From Polyangiales bacterium (GTDB taxonomy: Bacteria > Myxococcota_A > Polyangia > Polyangiales > Ga0077539): a stretch of DNA of 64,000 bases. The translations under genes and the position numbers were made by a program. The DNA lies in the NCBI GenBank assembly GCA_044229975.1, contig JBGARZ010000002.1, forward strand, positions 160,001-224,000, given 5' to 3'. The notes below the pieces were generated by a model. It worked only from the letters and a program-made list of their open reading frames with translations. It was not told where the DNA came from and searched no databases. The number at the start of each line of letters is the position of its first letter. The stretch's first letter is position 1. Below are positions 15,021 to 47,898 of this stretch, piece after piece.

Positions 15021-16205
15021 ATGCGCATCGCCCACCTCGCCGACCTCCACATCGGGCGGGTCTTCCACGGCCAGTCGCTCATCCCCGACCAGCGCCACAT
15101 CCTGGAGCAGATCACCGCCCGGCTGCGCGCCGCCGAGGTCGATGTGCTCGTGCTCGCGGGCGATCTCTACGACCGCGCGCTGCCGAGCCGCGACGCGGTG
15201 CGCCTCGTCGATGACTTCCTCCACGAGGCCCGCGCGAGCCTGGGGCTTCCTGTCATCGCGATCGCTGGAAATCACGACAGCGGCGAGCACCTCGGCTTCG
15301 GTGCCTGGATGTTCGCGCAGGGCGACCTGCACCTCCGCGGTCGCATCGACGGACCCCTGCGCCCCGTCACCCTCGAAGACCGCCACGGCGAGGTGACGTT
15401 TTACCCGGTTCCGTATGTCGAGCCCGAGGGCGCCGCCGCGCTCTTCGTTCCTCCCGGGGCCGAGGCGCCCGTCATCGGCGGCACGCTCACCCACGGCGAG
15501 ACCGTCGAAGCGCTGCTCGCGCCCGCGCACGAGCACCGCGTGGCGCACGGCGTCCGCCGCTCGGTGGTCATCGCCCACGCCTTCGTGCGGGGCGCCGTGG
15601 CACCGATCGAGTCGCCGCGCTCGGAGCGGAGCCTCTACCTGGGCAACGTGGGCGCGGTGCCCGCGTCGCACTTCGACGGGTTCTCCTACGTGGCCCTCGG
15701 GCACCTGCACCGCCCGCAGTGGATCGGCGACGACCGAAGGCTGCGCTACGCGGGCGCTCCCCTGCGCTACGCCTTCGAGGAGACCGACGACCCGCGCACC
15801 CTCTCGGTGGTGACCGTCGACGCGGACGGTGCGTGCACGCTCGAAGAAGAGACGCTCTCCCCGCGACGCGCGCTCGGTCGGGTGCGCGGTGACCTCGCGA
15901 CCCTGCTCGGCGACCCGGCGCTGGAGCCATACACGACCCGGTATGTGCAGGCCGTGCTGACGGACCCGTTGGTCCCACAGCAAGCGATGGACCGACTGCG
16001 CGAGCGCTTTCCACACCTGCTCGAACTTCGCCGCGCACCCTCGCCTGGCGAGCCGCTGGTCGTCGCGGCGCAAGGCACCACGGAGCACCGCGGCCCGGCG
16101 GAGGTCTTCGAGGACTTCTTCCGGCGGCATGGCTCGGGAGAAGTGACCGCCGCCGACCGTGCGGTCTTCGCCGAAGCGCTTCGGGCCACCGAGGAACCCG
16201 CGTGA
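15021..16205 (+). CDS. sbcD: Exonuclease SbcCD subunit D (Mre11 family)
   Basis: HLADLHIG, AGDLYD, AGNHD, YVALGHLH phosphoesterase motifs; GTGA overlap with sbcC. Confidence 0.95.
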   Translation: MRIAHLADLHIGRVFHGQSLIPDQRHILEQITARLRAAEVDVLVLAGDLYDRALPSRDAVRLVDDFLHEARASLGLPVIAIAGNHDSGEHLGFGAWMFAQGDLHLRGRIDGPLRPVTLEDRHGEVTFYPVPYVEPEGAAALFVPPGAEAPVIGGTLTHGETVEALLAPAHEHRVAHGVRRSVVIAHAFVRGAVAPIESPRSERSLYLGNVGAVPASHFDGFSYVALGHLHRPQWIGDDRRLRYAGAPLRYAFEETDDPRTLSVVTVDADGACTLEEETLSPRRALGRVRGDLATLLGDPALEPYTTRYVQAVLTDPLVPQQAMDRLRERFPHLLELRRAPSPGEPLVVAAQGTTEHRGPAEVFEDFFRRHGSGEVTAADRAVFAEALRATEEPA

Positions 16206-19200
16206 AGCCCCACTCCCTCACGCTGCGGCAGTTTGGTCCCTACGCCGACCACACCGTCGACATCGAACCCTTCCACGGCGCCGGGCTCTTCCTCATCCAC
16301 GGCGACACGGGCTCGGGCAAGAGCACGCTGCTCGACGCCATGTCGTGGGCGCTCTATGGCCGCGGCCTCGGCGACCGCACCACCGACGAGATGATCCGCA
16401 ACGTCGGCGCACCGCCCGAGCTCCCCACCGAGGCGTCGCTGGAGTTCTCGCTCGGCCCGCGTCGCTACCGGGTCACGCGCACGCTGGAGCCCGAGCGCAC
16501 CTCCCGCCGCGGAACCGTCAAGCGCGCCCGCACCACCGCCTCGCTCCAGTGCCTCGCGGGCGATCCGCAGTTCGCGGTGGTGGGCGGAGCGAAGGAGGTC
16601 ACCCAGGCGATCGCCAACCTATTGCAGCTCCCGCACGAGCAGTTCTCGCGGGTGATCGTGCTCCCGCAGGGTGAGTTTCGCGACCTGCTCCTGGCGTCGG
16701 CGAAGCAGCGCGAGCAGCTGCTGGAGCACCTCTTCGGCACCGAGCGCTACGCCCGCATCGAGGAGCACCTCCGCACGCTCGATCAGGCCGCGCGCGCCAC
16801 CCTCGACCGCGCCGACGCCGCCATCGCGGCGGTCTTCGCTGCGGTCGGAGCCGTCGACCTTCCCGACCTCGACGCCAAGGCCGCCGACGCCCGCCGACGC
16901 CTCGCCGAGGGAGACATCGCCATCGCCGAGGCGCGCGCCGCGGCCGACGCCACCCTCGCGGCGAAGTCGTCCGCGCGCGAGCAGGAGCGCCGCAACGAGC
17001 GCCGCCGCGCTCACCTCGCCGCGCTGCGCGAGATCTCCGACGCCGAAGCGACGATCGGGCAGGTCCGCGCGCGCCTCGACCGGGCCGTCGCTGCGGGCCG
17101 TTGTCTCGACCACGTCACTCGTTGGCGTGCCGCAACGGCCGCCCGCGAGCGACGACGCATGCAGCTCGACGAGGCCCGCGCGGCGTGCAGGCGCCTCGGG
17201 GTCGAGCTCACTGCGGACGAGTTCGACCCCGCCGGCCTCGAAGCGCGGGAGGCGTCGCTGCGGGACAACGCGGGTCGGGCCGCTGCGATGCGGGTGTTGG
17301 CCGACGACGCACTCCGCATCGCCGCCCTGGAGCGCGACATTCGAGAGGGCCACGACACCATCGAACGCCTCGTGGCCTCGCTCGCATCGCGCGAGCTGGC
17401 TGTCGCCGACGCGGCCGCGCGGCGGGACGAACTCGACGCCCTGGTGGCCGCCCACGACGCCGCGCTCTCCGACGAAGCTTCCCTGCGCGCTCGCCTCGAC
17501 AACCTCGTCGCGCGGCTGCAGCGCGCCGTCGATCGACGGTCGCAGGAGGACGCCTTGCGTGGGCTCGAGCGCGCGCTCCGCAACGCTCGCTCGCTCGAAC
17601 GCGACGCCGACGAGGCCTGGCGCGAGGCGTCGGCCGCCGACGAGCGCACCCGACGAGCGCACCTGCACGCGGAGGCCGTGAGCCTGGCCGCGAGGCTCGT
17701 CGCGGGAGAGCCGTGCGTGGTCTGCGGTTCGCGCGAGCATCCCGCTCCCGCGGTCGCTCTGGAAGTACCGCCGTCCGCTCCCGCGGGTGATGCCGCTCGG
17801 GTGGAGGAGCTGGCGGCGAAGCGCGAGAAGGCTCGGCGTGAGGTGCTGACGCTGGAGGTGCGAGTCGAGGAGGCGACCGCGGCGCTGCGCTCGGGCGGAG
17901 ACGCGGAACCCACGGACGAGGAGGCACTGACCGCGGAGGTGGCGTTGGGTCGCGACGCGCTCGCGACGCTGAGGCGCCGACGCCTCGACCTGGACGCCCT
18001 GCGACGGAAGCGGTCGACGCTGGTCGAGGAGTACGACCGCAACTCCGCTGCGATCGGCCCCGAACGCGCGAACCTCATCGGCCTGCGAGCGCGCGTGGCG
18101 ACGATGGAGGAGACGGCGGCCCGTGGCCGAGCGCGCCTGTCCGACGCAGGAGTGGACCCGGCGCGCCTCGAAGAGACGCTCACGGCGCTCGACGATGCCA
18201 TCGCGCGGGAGACCGAGTCGCTCCGCGCGGCGAAGTCGCGTCGTGACGATGCGACCCGACGGCTCGCGGCGGCGGAAGGAGCGACGCCAGCGTTGGAGGC
18301 CGCGCTCGACCGCGCGTCGGCCCTGGTGGATGAGGCACAGGAGCACCTTCGCGTGGCGATGCGGGAGGGAGCCTTCGACGATGAAGCCGCGGTGGAGTCG
18401 GCGGTGCTCACGGCCGAGGAGAGCGCCCGGCTGCGCCACCAGGTGGAGTCTCACGTCCGGTCCGGGGCGATGCATCGCGAGGCGATCGACGTGTTGGGGC
18501 CCGAGGAGTCCGACGCTTCGGCGCTGGTGCGCTCCCTCGCGGAGGCTGAAGCGGGGCAACGGACGCGGCTCGACGCGCTCCAACGCGAGGCGGGCGTCGC
18601 GCAGTCGCTGCTCGCAGCCCTCGAACGCCATCGGCATACGCTCGCGACGGCGAGCGCGGCGAGGGAGACGGCGGCGGCCCGCTCCCGCGAGGTGCGCCGC
18701 GTGTCCGAGGCGGCCAACGGCAAGGGTCCGACGAAGGTACGCCTTAGCCGCTATGTGCTGCTCGACCTCTTCGACCGCGTGGTCGCGAGCGCCAGCGCGA
18801 GCCTGGAGGCGGTGAGCGATGGGCGATATCGCCTCCGTCGGCAGGAGCGCGCGTTGACGGGTCACGAGTTCGATCTGGTCGTCGACGATGCGTACGTCGG
18901 CGGAGCGCCGCGACCGGCGGCGAGCCTCTCGGGGGGCGAGGTGTTTCTCGCGTCGTTGGCGATGGCGCTCGGGCTGGGCGAGGTGCTCCAGGCGTGGTCG
19001 GGCGGCATCCGCGTGGAGTCGCTCTTCGTCGACGAGGGCTTCGGCGCGCTCGACGAGGACACCATCGAGCGCGCCATCGAGCTGCTCGAACGCCTCCCCT
19101 GCGGCGCCCGTATGGTGGGCGTCGTGTCGCACGTGCCCGAGCTCCGCAAGCGCATCCCCGCGCGTCTGGAGGTGCTCCGTGGCGACCGCGGTACGCACAC

Positions 19201-19234
19201 CCGGTGTTCACTGCGTCATCGCGGTGGCCGTTGA
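16202..19234 (+). CDS. sbcC: Exonuclease SbcCD subunit C (Rad50/SMC ATPase)
   Basis: FGPY, Walker A GDTGSGKS, LPQGEF Q-loop, long coiled coils, zinc hook PCVVCGSREHP, LSGGE signature, FVDEGFGALD, VVSHV. Confidence 0.96.
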   Translation: MKPHSLTLRQFGPYADHTVDIEPFHGAGLFLIHGDTGSGKSTLLDAMSWALYGRGLGDRTTDEMIRNVGAPPELPTEASLEFSLGPRRYRVTRTLEPERTSRRGTVKRARTTASLQCLAGDPQFAVVGGAKEVTQAIANLLQLPHEQFSRVIVLPQGEFRDLLLASAKQREQLLEHLFGTERYARIEEHLRTLDQAARATLDRADAAIAAVFAAVGAVDLPDLDAKAADARRRLAEGDIAIAEARAAADATLAAKSSAREQERRNERRRAHLAALREISDAEATIGQVRARLDRAVAAGRCLDHVTRWRAATAARERRRMQLDEARAACRRLGVELTADEFDPAGLEAREASLRDNAGRAAAMRVLADDALRIAALERDIREGHDTIERLVASLASRELAVADAAARRDELDALVAAHDAALSDEASLRARLDNLVARLQRAVDRRSQEDALRGLERALRNARSLERDADEAWREASAADERTRRAHLHAEAVSLAARLVAGEPCVVCGSREHPAPAVALEVPPSAPAGDAARVEELAAKREKARREVLTLEVRVEEATAALRSGGDAEPTDEEALTAEVALGRDALATLRRRRLDLDALRRKRSTLVEEYDRNSAAIGPERANLIGLRARVATMEETAARGRARLSDAGVDPARLEETLTALDDAIARETESLRAAKSRRDDATRRLAAAEGATPALEAALDRASALVDEAQEHLRVAMREGAFDDEAAVESAVLTAEESARLRHQVESHVRSGAMHREAIDVLGPEESDASALVRSLAEAEAGQRTRLDALQREAGVAQSLLAALERHRHTLATASAARETAAARSREVRRVSEAANGKGPTKVRLSRYVLLDLFDRVVASASASLEAVSDGRYRLRRQERALTGHEFDLVVDDAYVGGAPRPAASLSGGEVFLASLAMALGLGEVLQAWSGGIRVESLFVDEGFGALDEDTIERAIELLERLPCGARMVGVVSHVPELRKRIPARLEVLRGDRGTHTRCSLRHRGGR

Positions 19235-20269: not shown

Positions 20270-21379
20270 CTACTGACGCCGTGTCGACGGTTGCACGACG
20301 TGCGTCACGCCGAAGCGCCCCTGGGTGCGGCGCACGGCGTAGCGACCGTCGGGCGGGGCCTTCGACACCGGGCACAGCGCCGCCGCATTGAAGGGGCACG
20401 CCCGGCACTTGCCGCGCGCCACGGTGCCTTCGGGGGAGCGCTCGCCGGTCCAGTACGAGGTCGCCCAGTGGAGGTCGCGCTCGACCCGCTGGCGCGAGTG
20501 GCGGAAGACCCACAGCCCGTACGCCTCGTCGTCGACGCGCCGCACCGTCAGCCCTGAGAGCGGGTCAGGCAATCCGCTCGGGGGTCGCGCGTCGGTGGCG
20601 CTCAAGCCCGCGCGCGCCACCTCGAAGGCCGCTTCGGCGATGGTGTGTGCGAGCGCGTCGTTGACCCGTCGACCGCGCGGCAGCACCGCCACTCCGTAGA
20701 GCAGTCGATCGGTCTGGAACCCCATGGACTCCAGCATCCGGCCGTACGCCTCGACCTGCACCACGTGCGACGGAAACAGCTCGCGTCGCCCCGAGAATTT
20801 GAACTCCAGCACCAGCCGCGCGCGCCGCCCTTCGAGGTGGATGCGGTCGGCCCGACCCACGAGGCGCACCCCGTGTATCTCCGCCGTCACGGGCATCTCT
20901 ACCAGCTCCAGCGGCTCGCCCGCGGTGATGGCTTCGCTGATCTCCTGCTGCGAGATCTCCTCGGCCTCGGCCTCGAAGGCAGCGTGCCCGGCGGCGCCCG
21001 CTGCGAGCTCGGCGCTCTCGGTGCGAAGCGTGTGCGTCCGCGCGAGGTGCACCTGCATCTCGCAATAGAACTGGTTGGCCAGCGTGCTCACCGACACCCG
21101 GGGAGGGCCCGCCATGCGCGGCCCTTCGACGAAGCGACGAATCGCGGGCAGGCGCTCGGCGGTGAAGAGCGCGTCGAGGGTGGTCTCCATCCCGAAGCGG
21201 CGGAGCGAGGCGTAGTAGCGACCGACGGGTTCGGGGAAGATCCCCGCGCCGTGCAGGGCCTCCCACACGGCCCGAGGCGACCCGAGCGCGCCGACGATCT
21301 CGTAGAACCGCGGCGCGAGCGTGGCCCGCGCGTGTGCGATTTCGAGGAGATGGGGCAGGTCGAGGAGCGGGGGGTTCAT
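20270..21379 (-). CDS. Cas4/Exo5-like PD-(D/E)XK nuclease with Fe-S staple cysteines
   Basis: VSVSTLANQFYCE (Cys1), GAAGH, E-MPV, GRAD, LEFK, QVEAY (QxxxY), C-terminal CRACPF...LC (three Cys). Confidence 0.85.
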   Translation of the reverse strand: MNPPLLDLPHLLEIAHARATLAPRFYEIVGALGSPRAVWEALHGAGIFPEPVGRYYASLRRFGMETTLDALFTAERLPAIRRFVEGPRMAGPPRVSVSTLANQFYCEMQVHLARTHTLRTESAELAAGAAGHAAFEAEAEEISQQEISEAITAGEPLELVEMPVTAEIHGVRLVGRADRIHLEGRRARLVLEFKFSGRRELFPSHVVQVEAYGRMLESMGFQTDRLLYGVAVLPRGRRVNDALAHTIAEAAFEVARAGLSATDARPPSGLPDPLSGLTVRRVDDEAYGLWVFRHSRQRVERDLHWATSYWTGERSPEGTVARGKCRACPFNAAALCPVSKAPPDGRYAVRRTQGRFGVTHVVQPSTRRQ

Positions 21380-21451
21380 CGTCGAGGGAGGACGGGCGCA
21401 GTGTATCCCGACTCCCCCGACGGGAGCGCCGAACATCCCGAGGTCGGGCGT

Positions 21452-22354
21452 TCAGGCAGCTTGCGAGTCGGCGGCACCGTTGGTGCTACCGCGCCGCGTG
21501 TCTTCCTCGGCGATGGCCTTCTTGAGCCACACCTTGGCGTTCTTCATGCGGCCTACTTCCTCGGTTCGCTTGCAGAGCGCCCGCCACGCGGCCTCGCGGT
21601 CAGCCACCGGCAGGGGTGCCAGCTCGGCGCGGAACTTCATCCACACCGCCACCGACTCCCCGGGCAACTCGATCTCGTTGAGCCGCGCGTAGAAGCCACC
21701 GAGCGCCGGGTGGGCCGTCGTGGGGTCGGGCGTCGGGTCGTTGGCCGGCGTCTCGTCCGCGGCTTCGGCCAGAGGGTTGACCTGGCTGAAGTCCACGCGC
21801 CCACCGGGCTCCTGCGCGCCCGCCGGGATGGTCTCGATCTCCATCTCGTCGAGCACCCCGAGGCCCAGGATGGACAACGTCGCGCGCCGCTTGGCCTTAG
21901 TTTCAGCCTTCATCAGCATGTTGACCGGGTCGATGACCGGCAGCGTCGCCGTCGCCGTCTCGACGCGCCCGTTGGGCAGCGACGCCTCGCACACCGCGTA
22001 GACCAGCTTGGTGCCCGCGAGGTCGATGACCTTCGGGCCGTCGATGATCCGGCGCGTGACCCGGTGCATCGCCGCGAGCTGATCGGTCGCGCCGCGCGTC
22101 GCGTAGAGAACCTCCTTCCCGTTGAGCCGCAGAAACGCGAAGGGCTGCGCATGGGGGTTGAGCCCGAGGCCCTCGCACATCTGCACGTAGAAGCGCGTCC
22201 GCTCCGCCGGCCCCAGGCCCGACAGGTCGCCGCGCAGCACGATGGAGTCGATGACCTTCGCACCCGTGCGCTCGTCCACCGCGTAGTCCACGCGCTCGGG
22301 CGTCGCGGTCGCCTTCGTCGCCTTGCTCTTTGTCTCGTTCTTTTCAGTAGTCAT
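21452..22354 (-). CDS. Phage-type single-strand annealing protein (RecT/Red-beta/Rad52 superfamily-like)
   Basis: GDLSGLGPAERTRFY..MCEGLGLNP..QPF..LRLNGK..LYA..GATDQL and MLMKAETKAKRRA.L...GLG.LDE.E; the core resembles Bet/RecT-type recombinases, followed by an acidic/Pro linker and a helical C-terminal domain. Confidence 0.7.
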   Translation of the reverse strand: MTTEKNETKSKATKATATPERVDYAVDERTGAKVIDSIVLRGDLSGLGPAERTRFYVQMCEGLGLNPHAQPFAFLRLNGKEVLYATRGATDQLAAMHRVTRRIIDGPKVIDLAGTKLVYAVCEASLPNGRVETATATLPVIDPVNMLMKAETKAKRRATLSILGLGVLDEMEIETIPAGAQEPGGRVDFSQVNPLAEAADETPANDPTPDPTTAHPALGGFYARLNEIELPGESVAVWMKFRAELAPLPVADREAAWRALCKRTEEVGRMKNAKVWLKKAIAEEDTRRGSTNGAADSQAA

Positions 22355-22372
22355 GGCTCGTCCTCTTCCCTT

Positions 22373-22768
22373 TCACTCCACATCCGTCGCGGGGTCGAAA
22401 CCCGCCTCATCCGCGGTCTCAGCGTCGGGCTCGTCCATCGTCTCCAGCGCGGCGACGAAGGCCTCCGAGCGCTCATTGCAAAACGCCTCGAACTCCATGT
22501 CGCCCGCCAGCGCCGCCTCCGGGTCGGCGGGCAGCACGTCGTTGGCGGGCAGCAGCTCCGACCAGAACAGCGCCTCCACCGCCGGAACCCCCCAGCGCCG
22601 TTGGGCCTCGCGCAGCACCCGCTCCTTCTTGAAGCGGGGGTGGGCCTTCCAGTCGGCGTAGCTGAGCTCGGCCCGCAGGCGCACCAGCTCGTCGAGCTCA
22701 TGCTGCGACTCCACCCGCCGCTCGTCGTAGATCGGGGTCGTGGGGTGGCGGTCTGCAATATTGCTCAT
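22373..22768 (-). CDS. Small acidic hypothetical protein, first gene of the SSAP operon
   Basis: GAAGGGA RBS before MSNIADRH; very acidic C-terminus (DEPDAETADEAGFDPATDVE); 18 nt gap with GGAAGAGG RBS before the SSAP gene. Confidence 0.75.
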   Translation of the reverse strand: MSNIADRHPTTPIYDERRVESQHELDELVRLRAELSYADWKAHPRFKKERVLREAQRRWGVPAVEALFWSELLPANDVLPADPEAALAGDMEFEAFCNERSEAFVAALETMDEPDAETADEAGFDPATDVE

Positions 22769-22902
22769 GGTCGTCGTCCCTTCGTTGGGGATGGTCGCCG
22801 CGGGGGTCGGAGCGCCATTGCCTGCGCGCTTGCTTCGCTCGTCCATCACGAGGAACAAGATAGGTCGACCCCCTCCCCCGCGCCGCACCACGCAAGGGTC
22901 GT

Positions 22903-22991
22903 GTGACGTAGTCTGTCCTCGTTACGGATGCGCGGGAAAGCCAGAGCTCTCAACCGATACGAGCACCGAGGGTCGTGACAGATTACGTCAC
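22903..22991. promoter_or_regulatory. Pair of operator-like sites in inverted orientation
   Basis: GTGACGTAGTCTGTC (22903-22917) and GACAGATTACGTCAC (22977-22991) are reverse complements at 14/15 positions. The second lies within the palindrome CGTGAC-N7-GTCACG (22974-22992). Confidence 0.55.
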
Positions 22992-22992
22992 G

Positions 22993-23613
22993 TCAGGGTT
23001 GCGGGACGACCTTCGGGCGCGTGGTCGCACCGACCGGTCGCAGCACGCCCGGGCGGTCGGCCCGACGTGGCGTGGCGAGGGCGCGGTCGTACCACTCGAC
23101 CAGCGTCCCCCGCTCGTGGGCGCTCTGGGCTCCGACCGCCAGGCGCAGCCACTCGCCCGTCGCCCGTTCGCCCGCCGCGCGCGCCACCGCTCGCAGCGCG
23201 ACGGCCACCGCGTGGTCGGGACGCAACGCCTCCAAGGCCTCTTCCAGCGCGTCGTCCCCGTCTCGGTTGACCTTGGCGGTGGGCTGCGTCGTCGCCGCCC
23301 TCCGACCACCGCCCACCAGGTCTGGGACGGCCCCCACCACCGCCCTCGCGAAGGGCCGCGGGTCGGGCTTCGCCGGTGCGTCGAAATAGTCCGCGGGCAG
23401 CCCGTACGCCTGCACCACCGCCATCATCACGTCGCCGCCGAGCGCACGGTGCCCGCCCAGGATGGCTGCCACGGTGCCCTGCTCGCGGCCGATGGACGCC
23501 GCGAAGGCCCGCTGCGTGAGCTTCGTCCCGCGCGCCGCCCCCAGCGCGTCGAACAGCTCCGCGAGCCGCTCGCGCCTCCTGCGGCTGAGCTCCTTCGACA
23601 CCGGACGCGGCAC
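22993..23613 (-). CDS. XRE/Cro-C1-type HTH regulator with unknown C-terminal domain
   Basis: RERLAELF...LTQRAFAASIGREQGTVAAILGGHRALG...VVQAYGLPADYF fits an XRE HTH. Start uncertain (GTG 23613 or TTG 23649). Confidence 0.75.
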   Translation of the reverse strand: MPRPVSKELSRRRRERLAELFDALGAARGTKLTQRAFAASIGREQGTVAAILGGHRALGGDVMMAVVQAYGLPADYFDAPAKPDPRPFARAVVGAVPDLVGGGRRAATTQPTAKVNRDGDDALEEALEALRPDHAVAVALRAVARAAGERATGEWLRLAVGAQSAHERGTLVEWYDRALATPRRADRPGVLRPVGATTRPKVVPQP

Positions 23614-23640
23614 GCCATCGGATCTACCAGGAACTCCAGC

Positions 23641-23690
23641 GTTTAGCAATCATTGCTTGACTGCTGTTGATATCTTGCGCAATACATCGG
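23641..23690. promoter_or_regulatory. AT-rich divergent promoter region with palindromes
   Basis: AGCAAT-C-ATTGCT (23645-23657) directly abuts TTGACT (23657-23662); TTGCGCAA at 23675-23682; lies between the divergent XRE gene and a small ORF. Confidence 0.55.
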
Positions 23691-23693
23691 GGC

Positions 23694-24041
23694 ATGAATG
23701 GCGATGCTCCCAACCCGCTGCGACCGCGGCTCCAGGTGCTCGACGGCGGGGCCCAGGGCCGTCGGCGCAAGCCCGTTCGGCTGACGCTCCTGCGCGACCC
23801 GGCTCGCGCCCACGCCGTCGACACGGACGACCTGCCCAACCCCGGTGAGCCCATGACGCACCTCGAGCACGCCATCGCGGCGCTGCGCGAGGCCGCCCAG
23901 GCCGAGACCGTCACCGGCCGCAGCGACGGGGTCATCGACGCGCTCGATCACCTCACCCGCGAGCTGAGCGTGCTCTTCGACGACGAGGTCGCTCGCACCG
24001 CCCTGCTCCGCATCTCCGGCCAGCTCCGCCGCCCACGCTGA
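23694..24041 (+). CDS. Hypothetical protein divergent from the XRE regulator
   Basis: 115-aa ORF with host-like codon usage, an LQVLDGG motif and a helical C-terminus. Confidence 0.6.
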   Translation: MNGDAPNPLRPRLQVLDGGAQGRRRKPVRLTLLRDPARAHAVDTDDLPNPGEPMTHLEHAIAALREAAQAETVTGRSDGVIDALDHLTRELSVLFDDEVARTALLRISGQLRRPR

Positions 24042-44796: not shown

Positions 44797-44804
44797 GGTT
44801 CTTG

Positions 44805-44876
44805 TACGGGCAGTAGGATTTGAACCTACGACTTCGACCGTGTGAAGGTCGCACTCTACCGCTGAGTTATGCCCGC
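44805..44876 (-). tRNA. tRNA-Val (anticodon CAC)
   Basis: GCGGGCATAACTCAGCGGTAGAGTGCGACCTTCACACGGTCGAAGTCGTAGGTTCAAATCCTACTGCCCGTA folds as a cloverleaf; anticodon arm CGACC-TTCACAC-GGTCG. Confidence 0.96.
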
Positions 44877-47822: not shown

Positions 47823-47898
47823 TGGTGTCCCCAAGGGGAGTCGAACCCCTGTTCGCGACGTGAAAAGCCGCTGTCCTGGGCCTCTAGACGATGGGGAC
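47823..47898 (-). tRNA. tRNA-Glu (anticodon TTC), CCA encoded
   Basis: GTCCCCATCGTCTAGAGGCCCAGGACAGCGGCTTTTCACGTCGCGAACAGGGGTTCGACTCCCCTTGGGGACACCA. Confidence 0.97.

Follow-up and report, generated by a model that had tools for sequence, protein, structure and literature searches.

A phage-free annealase-nuclease locus in one family of Polyangiales, probably under a DriD-like WYL activator

In a 64,000-nucleotide stretch of a Polyangiales genome of 10 Mb (G000:C38:160001-224000, hereafter the window), we found a block of five open reading frames (ORFs) at 20270..24041 that is real, old and phage-free, and in which a predicted single-strand annealing protein (annealase) is encoded beside an Exo5/Cas4-like nuclease. 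Within the family to which the genome belongs, the locus is vertically inherited and under purifying selection, and a palindrome before it is shared with host recA and ssb. The explanation towards which we lean, judging from sequence comparisons and predicted structures, is a domesticated, damage-induced module for repair by single-strand annealing, in which nuclease and annealase would cooperate and the annealase would have been captured from a phage. An earlier reading of the letters alone (the sequence-only reading) had described five ORFs, operator-like palindromes and fabH and E1 alpha flanks, all of which are as claimed, the palindromes being backed by conservation; it had left open whether the block was a prophage relic or a retained recombination system.

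Inheritance and setting of the locus

Among 31 genomes of the family, drawn from 10 genera, the annealase gene (21452..22354, minus strand) is present in 28 and the nuclease gene (20270..21379, minus strand) in 29, in 9 of the 10 genera, and wherever the annealase occurs in the family, the nuclease occurs as well. The two genes are adjacent and co-oriented in 27 of the 28, the remaining locus (G019) being broken at contig ends. The nuclease was found in 0 and the annealase in 1 of 227 further genomes of the order, and both in 0 of 298 genomes of the class, in searches that scored only 6-15 candidates per genome and may miss distant homologues. The order sbcCD-fabH, module, XRE gene, divergent ORF, E1 is kept whole or in part in genera g1, g2, g5, g6, g7 and g10; in g4/g9 and in genome G004, an acidic ORF, the annealase and the nuclease stand together amid other host genes, and the annealase and nuclease remain together in three chromosomal settings.

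The ratio of nonsynonymous to synonymous substitution (dN/dS) is 0.035-0.081 for the nuclease and 0.075-0.19 for the annealase (0.04-0.19 for the pair), with values up to 0.078 for fabH and a dS like that of the neighbours, and annealase frames are intact at 58-88% identity across 9 genera. Trees of the annealase and of the nuclease (25 genomes) each need 8 genus changes, which is the minimum, and pairwise identities of the two proteins correlate (rho 0.84 over 300 non-independent pairs). The two genes are linked in relatives, and the block is not a strain-specific decaying fragment, given its dN/dS and genus-following trees. Of the two origins considered in the sequence-only reading, long-term retention gained support and the decaying relic lost it (dN/dS below 1, 9 genera, congruent trees).

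The block lies between fabH (PF08541/PF08545) on one side and the genes for E1 alpha (PF00676) and E1 beta on the other. A scan of 44 window ORFs (8 + 36), taken from a simple gene caller that may miss some genes, turned up no family of integrases, terminases, capsid or Cas proteins, and neither att-like direct repeats nor a CRISPR-like array were seen at the borders of the block, so that the absence of phage genes, Cas genes and att repeats noted from the letters was confirmed. The window has only two tRNAs, tRNA-Val (44804-44876) and tRNA-Glu (47823-47898), both more than 20 kb from the block. GC content at third codon positions is 0.88-0.91 in the five block genes versus 0.87-0.94 in four neighbours, which bears out the earlier remark that codon use looks host-like, and each block gene is single copy in G000. 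Having no integrase, att repeats or structural genes and a presence that is not patchy, the locus does not belong to a prophage or integrative element. CRISPR adaptation was rejected because, in the window and at three other loci scanned, it is host metabolic genes that lie alongside, and a known defence system was rejected because a PADLOC scan gave no match except generic Cas4 models for the nuclease. The sbcD-sbcC genes lie at 15021-19234, directly before fabH and one gene from the module, as they do in g1, g2 and g7; sbcCD flank the module in g5 as well.

Conservation among relatives was used to refine the ORF starts to 21379, 22354, 22846, 23613 and 23694. The first four belong to minus-strand genes, which are co-oriented as first described but do not form a single unit: near the start of the acidic ORF, and again near that of the nuclease, lies a separate conserved -10-like element. 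These hexamers, found by eye, are at 22857..22862 (minus strand), approximately 10 nucleotides before the start of the acidic ORF, and at 21400..21405 (minus strand), a putative promoter of the nuclease's own that was picked out in an intergenic alignment of 18 loci. A sigma-70 consensus scan of the block returned 0 promoters and 1 chance-level terminator.

The annealase, the nuclease and the acidic protein

The 300-residue product of 21452..22354 is a predicted annealase of the Rad52/RecT/Erf/Sak superfamily, from an unnamed phage family, as judged by its fold model and phage relatives. Its annealing domain covers approximately residues 25-185. It has no Pfam match at E<=1 and no PHROG match at E<=0.1, and membership in the RecT/Red-beta family (PF03837) was rejected because it has no profile match. 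In the ESM Atlas it scored 0.97 to unnamed viral clusters and 0.95 to a cluster with Rad52_Rad22 in 20% of members. The structure model (predicted local distance difference test 83, from a 64-row alignment) has an N-terminal domain of hairpin, helix, three-stranded sheet and helix, in which the superfamily core (beta-hairpin, helix, three-stranded sheet, helix) is present. Foldseek placed RAD52 at ranks 1-14 (best E 1e-3), followed by Mgm101, Sak and RecT; in BFVD, uncharacterised phage proteins came on top (E to 1e-15), with Bet, Erf, RecT and Sak3 after them; and VIA aligned the model with RAD52 at Z 8.3 (root-mean-square deviation 4.8, 111 residues). The annealase alignment, run as a sequence profile against the PDB, gave no match. 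Of the "RecT/Bet-like annealing protein" proposed from the letters, the annealing fold survives, in its Rad52 form, and the RecT family assignment does not.

Sequence and phage context add weight to this fold call. In viral contigs, 132 of 169 pattern matches are annealase relatives, and 8 of 18 viral relatives tested match PF04098 (E<=0.1), 3 of them above the cut-off. At 4 of 27 viral loci, and at L043 too, the neighbours sampled include an exonuclease PHROG, and a PDDEXK_1 gene accompanies the relative in prophage L047. One member of the unnamed family is the "hypothetical protein" of a Campylobacter phage (L060:5932-6669; PP935708.1), which sits between RecE-like exonuclease and SSB genes. 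Another viral annealase (L082:4956-7718) is interrupted, immediately ahead of the helix that is most conserved, by a long insert with the look of an intein by eye and no Pfam match at 1e-5.

The annealase carries a C-terminal three-helix domain (residues ~212-294; 21473..21721, minus strand), which is likely to be an adaptor to a host factor, SSB. The domain also occurs on RecT/Bet, Sak/Rad52 and Sak4 (AAA_24) proteins of the same family's mobile elements, three of which lie near integrase genes; it is seen at 59-79% identity at L053:8328-10352, L054:8407-10044, L055:5306-6415 and L056:9119-9589, one host-specific module spread over four recombinase families. Red-beta's C-terminal domain is not among the 50 VIA matches listed for the three-helix domain and is not thereby excluded. 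The protein ends in Ala-Ala (21452-21460), as do 19 of 24 chromosomal copies versus 1.7% of 6369 genome ORFs, and this end resembles the transfer-messenger RNA (tmRNA) tag of G000 (tmRNA on G000:C14); an Ala-Asn-Asp motif, as at the start of the tag, is found in the acidic protein (22373-22846) and in several annealase linkers. Both are possible degrons for ClpXP or an adaptor, and a literature search on this found nothing.

Further copies of the annealase gene were seen in the family. A paralogue with 59% identity lies at L044:9714-10547 (G015), at a distance of 20 kb from the main locus, and a scan of 8 neighbours showed no phage genes. Divergent paralogues stand amid host genes at L051, L052, L057 and L058 (g6, g7) and at L050 and L059 (g2), those of g6/g7 in the order HTH gene, ORF of ~235 amino acids, paralogue, amine oxidase; the promoter box discussed below was found by eye at 3 of 4 paralogue loci aligned. 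They are possibly a second domestication.

The 369-residue nuclease (20270..21379) is of the PD-(D/E)XK type, matching Pfam Exo5 (PF09810) at 33.3 bits against a cut-off of 25 and PDDEXK_1 above its cut-off as well. A 4Fe-4S staple is predicted from one N-terminal and three C-terminal cysteines (C106, C325, C328 and C336), RecB-type catalytic residues were assigned by motif (D178, E192, K194, Q208 and Y212), and all of these are invariant in 36 of 36 aligned nuclease proteins. The protein described here also has an extra helical N-terminal domain, at approximately residues 1-90. Human EXO5 was the best Foldseek match (E 4.9e-6), SSO0001 Cas4 and AdnA being also among the nearest folds, and VIA gave Z values of 13.2 for Cas4, 11.6 for EXO5, 8.7 for RecE and 6.5 for lambda Exo. 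The Cas4/Exo5-like iron-sulphur (Fe-S) nuclease of the sequence-only reading is thus upheld. A profile search returned 44 matches, all close relatives of the query, and two sequence patterns did not find the family in viral contigs; the nuclease therefore does not look like a phage partner of the annealase. Its ESM Atlas score of 0.87 against archaeal Exo5/PDDEXK_1 clusters is a lead only, and a predicted complex with annealase residues 20-296 scored 0.00, which bears on binding neither way.

The first gene of the operon (22373..22846, minus strand) encodes an acidic protein of 157 amino acids with a conserved C-terminal acidic helix. Its dN/dS is 0.27-0.35 (6 pairs), homologues precede the annealase in g4, g8 and g9 also, and partial homologues occur at one prophage-like locus and on one viral contig; it has no Pfam and no PHROG match. 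It may be an accessory protein or a DNA mimic, and its transcript would be near-leaderless. The lambda genes are ordered gam-bet-exo, and small acidic ORF, annealase and nuclease follow this order here, the acidic ORF occupying the position of gam. In g4/g9 (L032-L036) an extra ORF of ~60 codons lies ahead of it, under two promoter boxes.

The promoter box and its candidate regulator

A 17-bp palindromic box at 22903..22919, with a distal copy at 22975..22991, is the putative site of a DriD-like WYL activator. By eye, the box was found before the operon in 12 of 12, 5 of 5 and 4 of 4 further loci, before recA and before ssb in 5 of 5 genomes each (with one genome shifted in either case, and with the best-scoring recA paralogue only in the alignment), and directly before the start of a WYL-WCX gene in 5 of 5. 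That the palindrome of the operon also precedes recA, ssb and a conserved DriD-like WYL gene is new here. The box is not before lexA (0 of 5), for which reason LexA was rejected as the regulator that binds it. The lexA gene carries another conserved box (upstream at L071), separate from the WYL-type box. In G007 an extra copy of the WYL-type box lies between the annealase and nuclease genes.

The WYL gene (G000:C38:976008-977009; HTH-WYL-WCX) is present in 30 of 31 family genomes, with an in-frame stop in G009. The closest solved relative of its product is DriD (E 2.7e-17; 8TP8, the DriD entry of PMC10853764). Arg37 and Arg41 of DriD read bases (PMC10853764), and these align to Arg48 and Arg52 of the WYL protein; Glu40, which reads the outermost base, is instead an Arg, and that base differs in the box. 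The core of the box (inner half-sites) and its 7-base spacer match the DriD consensus (PMC10853764, PMC12392091). Activated by single-stranded DNA (ssDNA), DriD binds the recA promoter and also, close to the start codon, the promoter of its own gene (PMC9186387). The arrangement is like that of the Caulobacter DriD and Moraxellaceae DdaA regulons, in which an HTH-WYL-WCX protein has a palindrome before its own gene and recA, but the available portions of those accounts describe no annealase target. In M. xanthus, a LexA-independent damage response and WYL homologues have been reported (PMC12288472). A search of sequencing runs listed 17 DNA runs, with small shares, and no RNA run. We consider the operon to be probably under a host DriD-like WYL activator shared with recA and ssb, and the family to have two putative damage regulons, one of the DriD-like regulator and one marked by the separate lexA box.

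The other two genes of the block appear to be a separate neighbouring switch rather than the controller of the module. The XRE-type helix-turn-helix protein (206 amino acids; 22993..23613, minus strand; HTH_3 E 0.027, under the cut-off) is encoded in 22 of 31 family genomes, was not found in g3, g4, g8 and g9, and was found in 0 of 177 other genomes of the order. It is accompanied by the divergent ORF (115 amino acids; 23694..24041, plus strand; dN/dS 0.04-0.35) and by a second palindromic set at 23646..23683, a putative XRE operator that is unrelated to the 17-bp box, is conserved in 15 + 5 loci, and is kept in G027, a genome without annealase and nuclease. The XRE gene and divergent ORF remain paired where the module is lost (G027) or relocated (G004), and operons of g4 and g9 keep two copies of the 17-bp box though the XRE gene was not found there. 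The XRE protein was rejected as box-binding regulator on the latter ground, and the control of the module by XRE suggested from the letters was not supported.

Explanations weighed and their meaning

In the repair module that we favour, ssDNA arising from damage would activate the WYL protein, which would bind the boxes and switch on the acidic ORF and the annealase. The nuclease would trim 5' strands at breaks and expose 3' tails; the annealase would reach the SSB-coated tails through its C-terminal domain and pair complementary tails without RecA, and its Ala-Ala end might let ClpXP clear it afterwards.

On balance, we would place such a module as working like Red/RecET and DdrA/DdrB while being a member of neither. 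Like lambda Red, Rac RecET and MxRecET, it has an exonuclease and an annealase side by side, and as in Red/RecET the annealase has a helical C-terminal domain (PMC11611040). It differs in that the annealase has no RecT Pfam match and the nuclease, with its Fe-S motif, is of the Exo5/Cas4-like kind. Rac, moreover, is a recent defective prophage that close relatives lack (PMC8987985), whereas the locus described here spans 9 genera without other phage genes. Capture of a Red/RecET pair as a whole is not supported, since the nuclease was not found in the viral contigs searched and has EXO5 and Cas4 as its nearest folds, and in phages the relatives of the annealase adjoin RecE-like exonucleases instead. 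Deinococcus DdrA and DdrB are likewise chromosomal, lineage-specific proteins for RecA-independent annealing or end protection, and DdrA is distantly Rad52-like (PMC3834827); they differ in protein family and in being under DdrO/IrrE (PMC12288472) rather than a WYL activator, and a linked Fe-S nuclease is not described for the Deinococcus pathway in the accessible text. The two proteins are also like EXO5 with RAD52 or yeast Mgm101, their top fold matches, but sequence identity is below ~22% and no descent is claimed. In yeast, Exo5 and Mgm101 both serve mitochondrial DNA.

Several observations weigh against the repair module. The RAD52 Z value of the annealase is tied by ribosomal uS5 over ~60 residues, and the fold by itself is therefore suggestive rather than decisive, with structural support that is moderate (Foldseek best E 1e-3). 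All box matches were made by eye, and their counts come without a chance rate. In the tree of the annealing domain (69 rows, after 33 of 64 distinct viral rows were dropped), phage, prophage and chromosomal copies interleave, with 7 changes of which at least 4 are forced by strong branches, so that a single capture is not shown. All 5 genomes checked have lexA, recO, ssb and recA, the last in two copies; recJ turned up in each of 5 genomes of a further set, and long PDDEXK_1 proteins are encoded in 4 of 5. Replacement of RecA, RecO or RecJ by the module was rejected because these genes are present, and with PDDEXK_1 there too, no standard recombination gap is filled except that of Ku. Ku is encoded in 1 of 31 family genomes (G009, which has neither annealase nor nuclease) versus 120 of 227 elsewhere in the order (a tally that includes the unpublished G388), a contrast that amounts to one lineage-level event and not to a statistical test; Ku is often missing in families without the module too (f3, 20/73; f45, 10/27), and the lone Ku-bearing family genome is only 82% complete. 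G027 (91% complete) is without acidic ORF, annealase, nuclease and Ku and can therefore dispense with the module. In G024 and G006 the nuclease gene falls into two frames. The nuclease has a promoter-like element of its own and is under tighter constraint than the annealase, and it is intact in G029, from which the annealase and the greater part of the acidic ORF are gone; the nuclease may therefore not need the annealase.

This last point leads to the possibility of two functions side by side, in which acidic ORF and annealase would be a damage-induced end-protection or annealing unit like Deinococcus DdrA, and the nuclease an independent downstream EXO5-like fork or flap nuclease. Besides its persistence in G029, where both the promoter box and the -10-like element of the nuclease are retained, this is favoured by a nuclease dN/dS as low as that of fabH and by the failure to find the nuclease in viral contigs, where the annealase family is common. 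We nevertheless judge it rather unlikely, since across 9 genera the two genes have remained neighbours in all three settings to which rearrangement has brought them, the annealase alone was seen in no genome, and G007 has its extra box between the two genes. Alternatively, one could envision a role in gene exchange or conflict with phages, the module recombining incoming, prey or prophage DNA or disturbing related phage recombinases under damage control. The interleaving of phage and chromosomal alleles, the presence of the same C-terminal domain on four recombinase families in the family's mobile elements, and the ability of WYL activators to drive defence genes (PMC12392091) would fit such a role. 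It is improbable in view of a main locus that, unlike most defence genes, is stably inherited with a single-copy nuclease, and of the PADLOC scan, which returned nothing beyond generic Cas4 models.

A decaying relic of a prophage early region, without host function, is very improbable and largely refuted. The phage-like style of the genes (repressor, divergent ORF, small ORF, annealase, nuclease) and the step-wise loss in G029 and G027 are what a relic would show, but intact frames, dN/dS well below 1, annealase identities of 58-88% over 9 genera, trees congruent with the genera, and a promoter box common to host recA and ssb all stand against it. Tentatively, the repair module may be extended to a longer history, in which the family would have dropped Ku end joining and built a eukaryote-like break pathway (Exo5-type Fe-S resection with Rad52-type annealing) from a captured phage annealase, wired it into an ssDNA-sensing WYL regulon, captured a second paralogue, and would still swap annealase alleles and the SSB-docking domain with phages.

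No description of the locus was found in the open-access literature without supplements, and the tables of single-strand annealing proteins in PMC8093625 and PMC12054835 might list family members. The sequence-only reading had proposed a native recombineering tool for myxobacteria, an idea that is less new now that MxRecET has been published for Myxococcus recombineering (PMC13454183), although the host-adapted C-terminal domain could help port recombineering to the order Polyangiales. The analysis also supplies an unnamed family of phage annealases, with 132 viral matches, and, for Polyangiales, a candidate regulon of the DriD type. When phage annealases are reported from bacterial chromosomes, they are mostly sporadic and have phage genes alongside (PMC8987985); an annealase that selection has kept in 9 genera, outside any prophage and apparently within a host damage regulon, would represent a lasting domestication.

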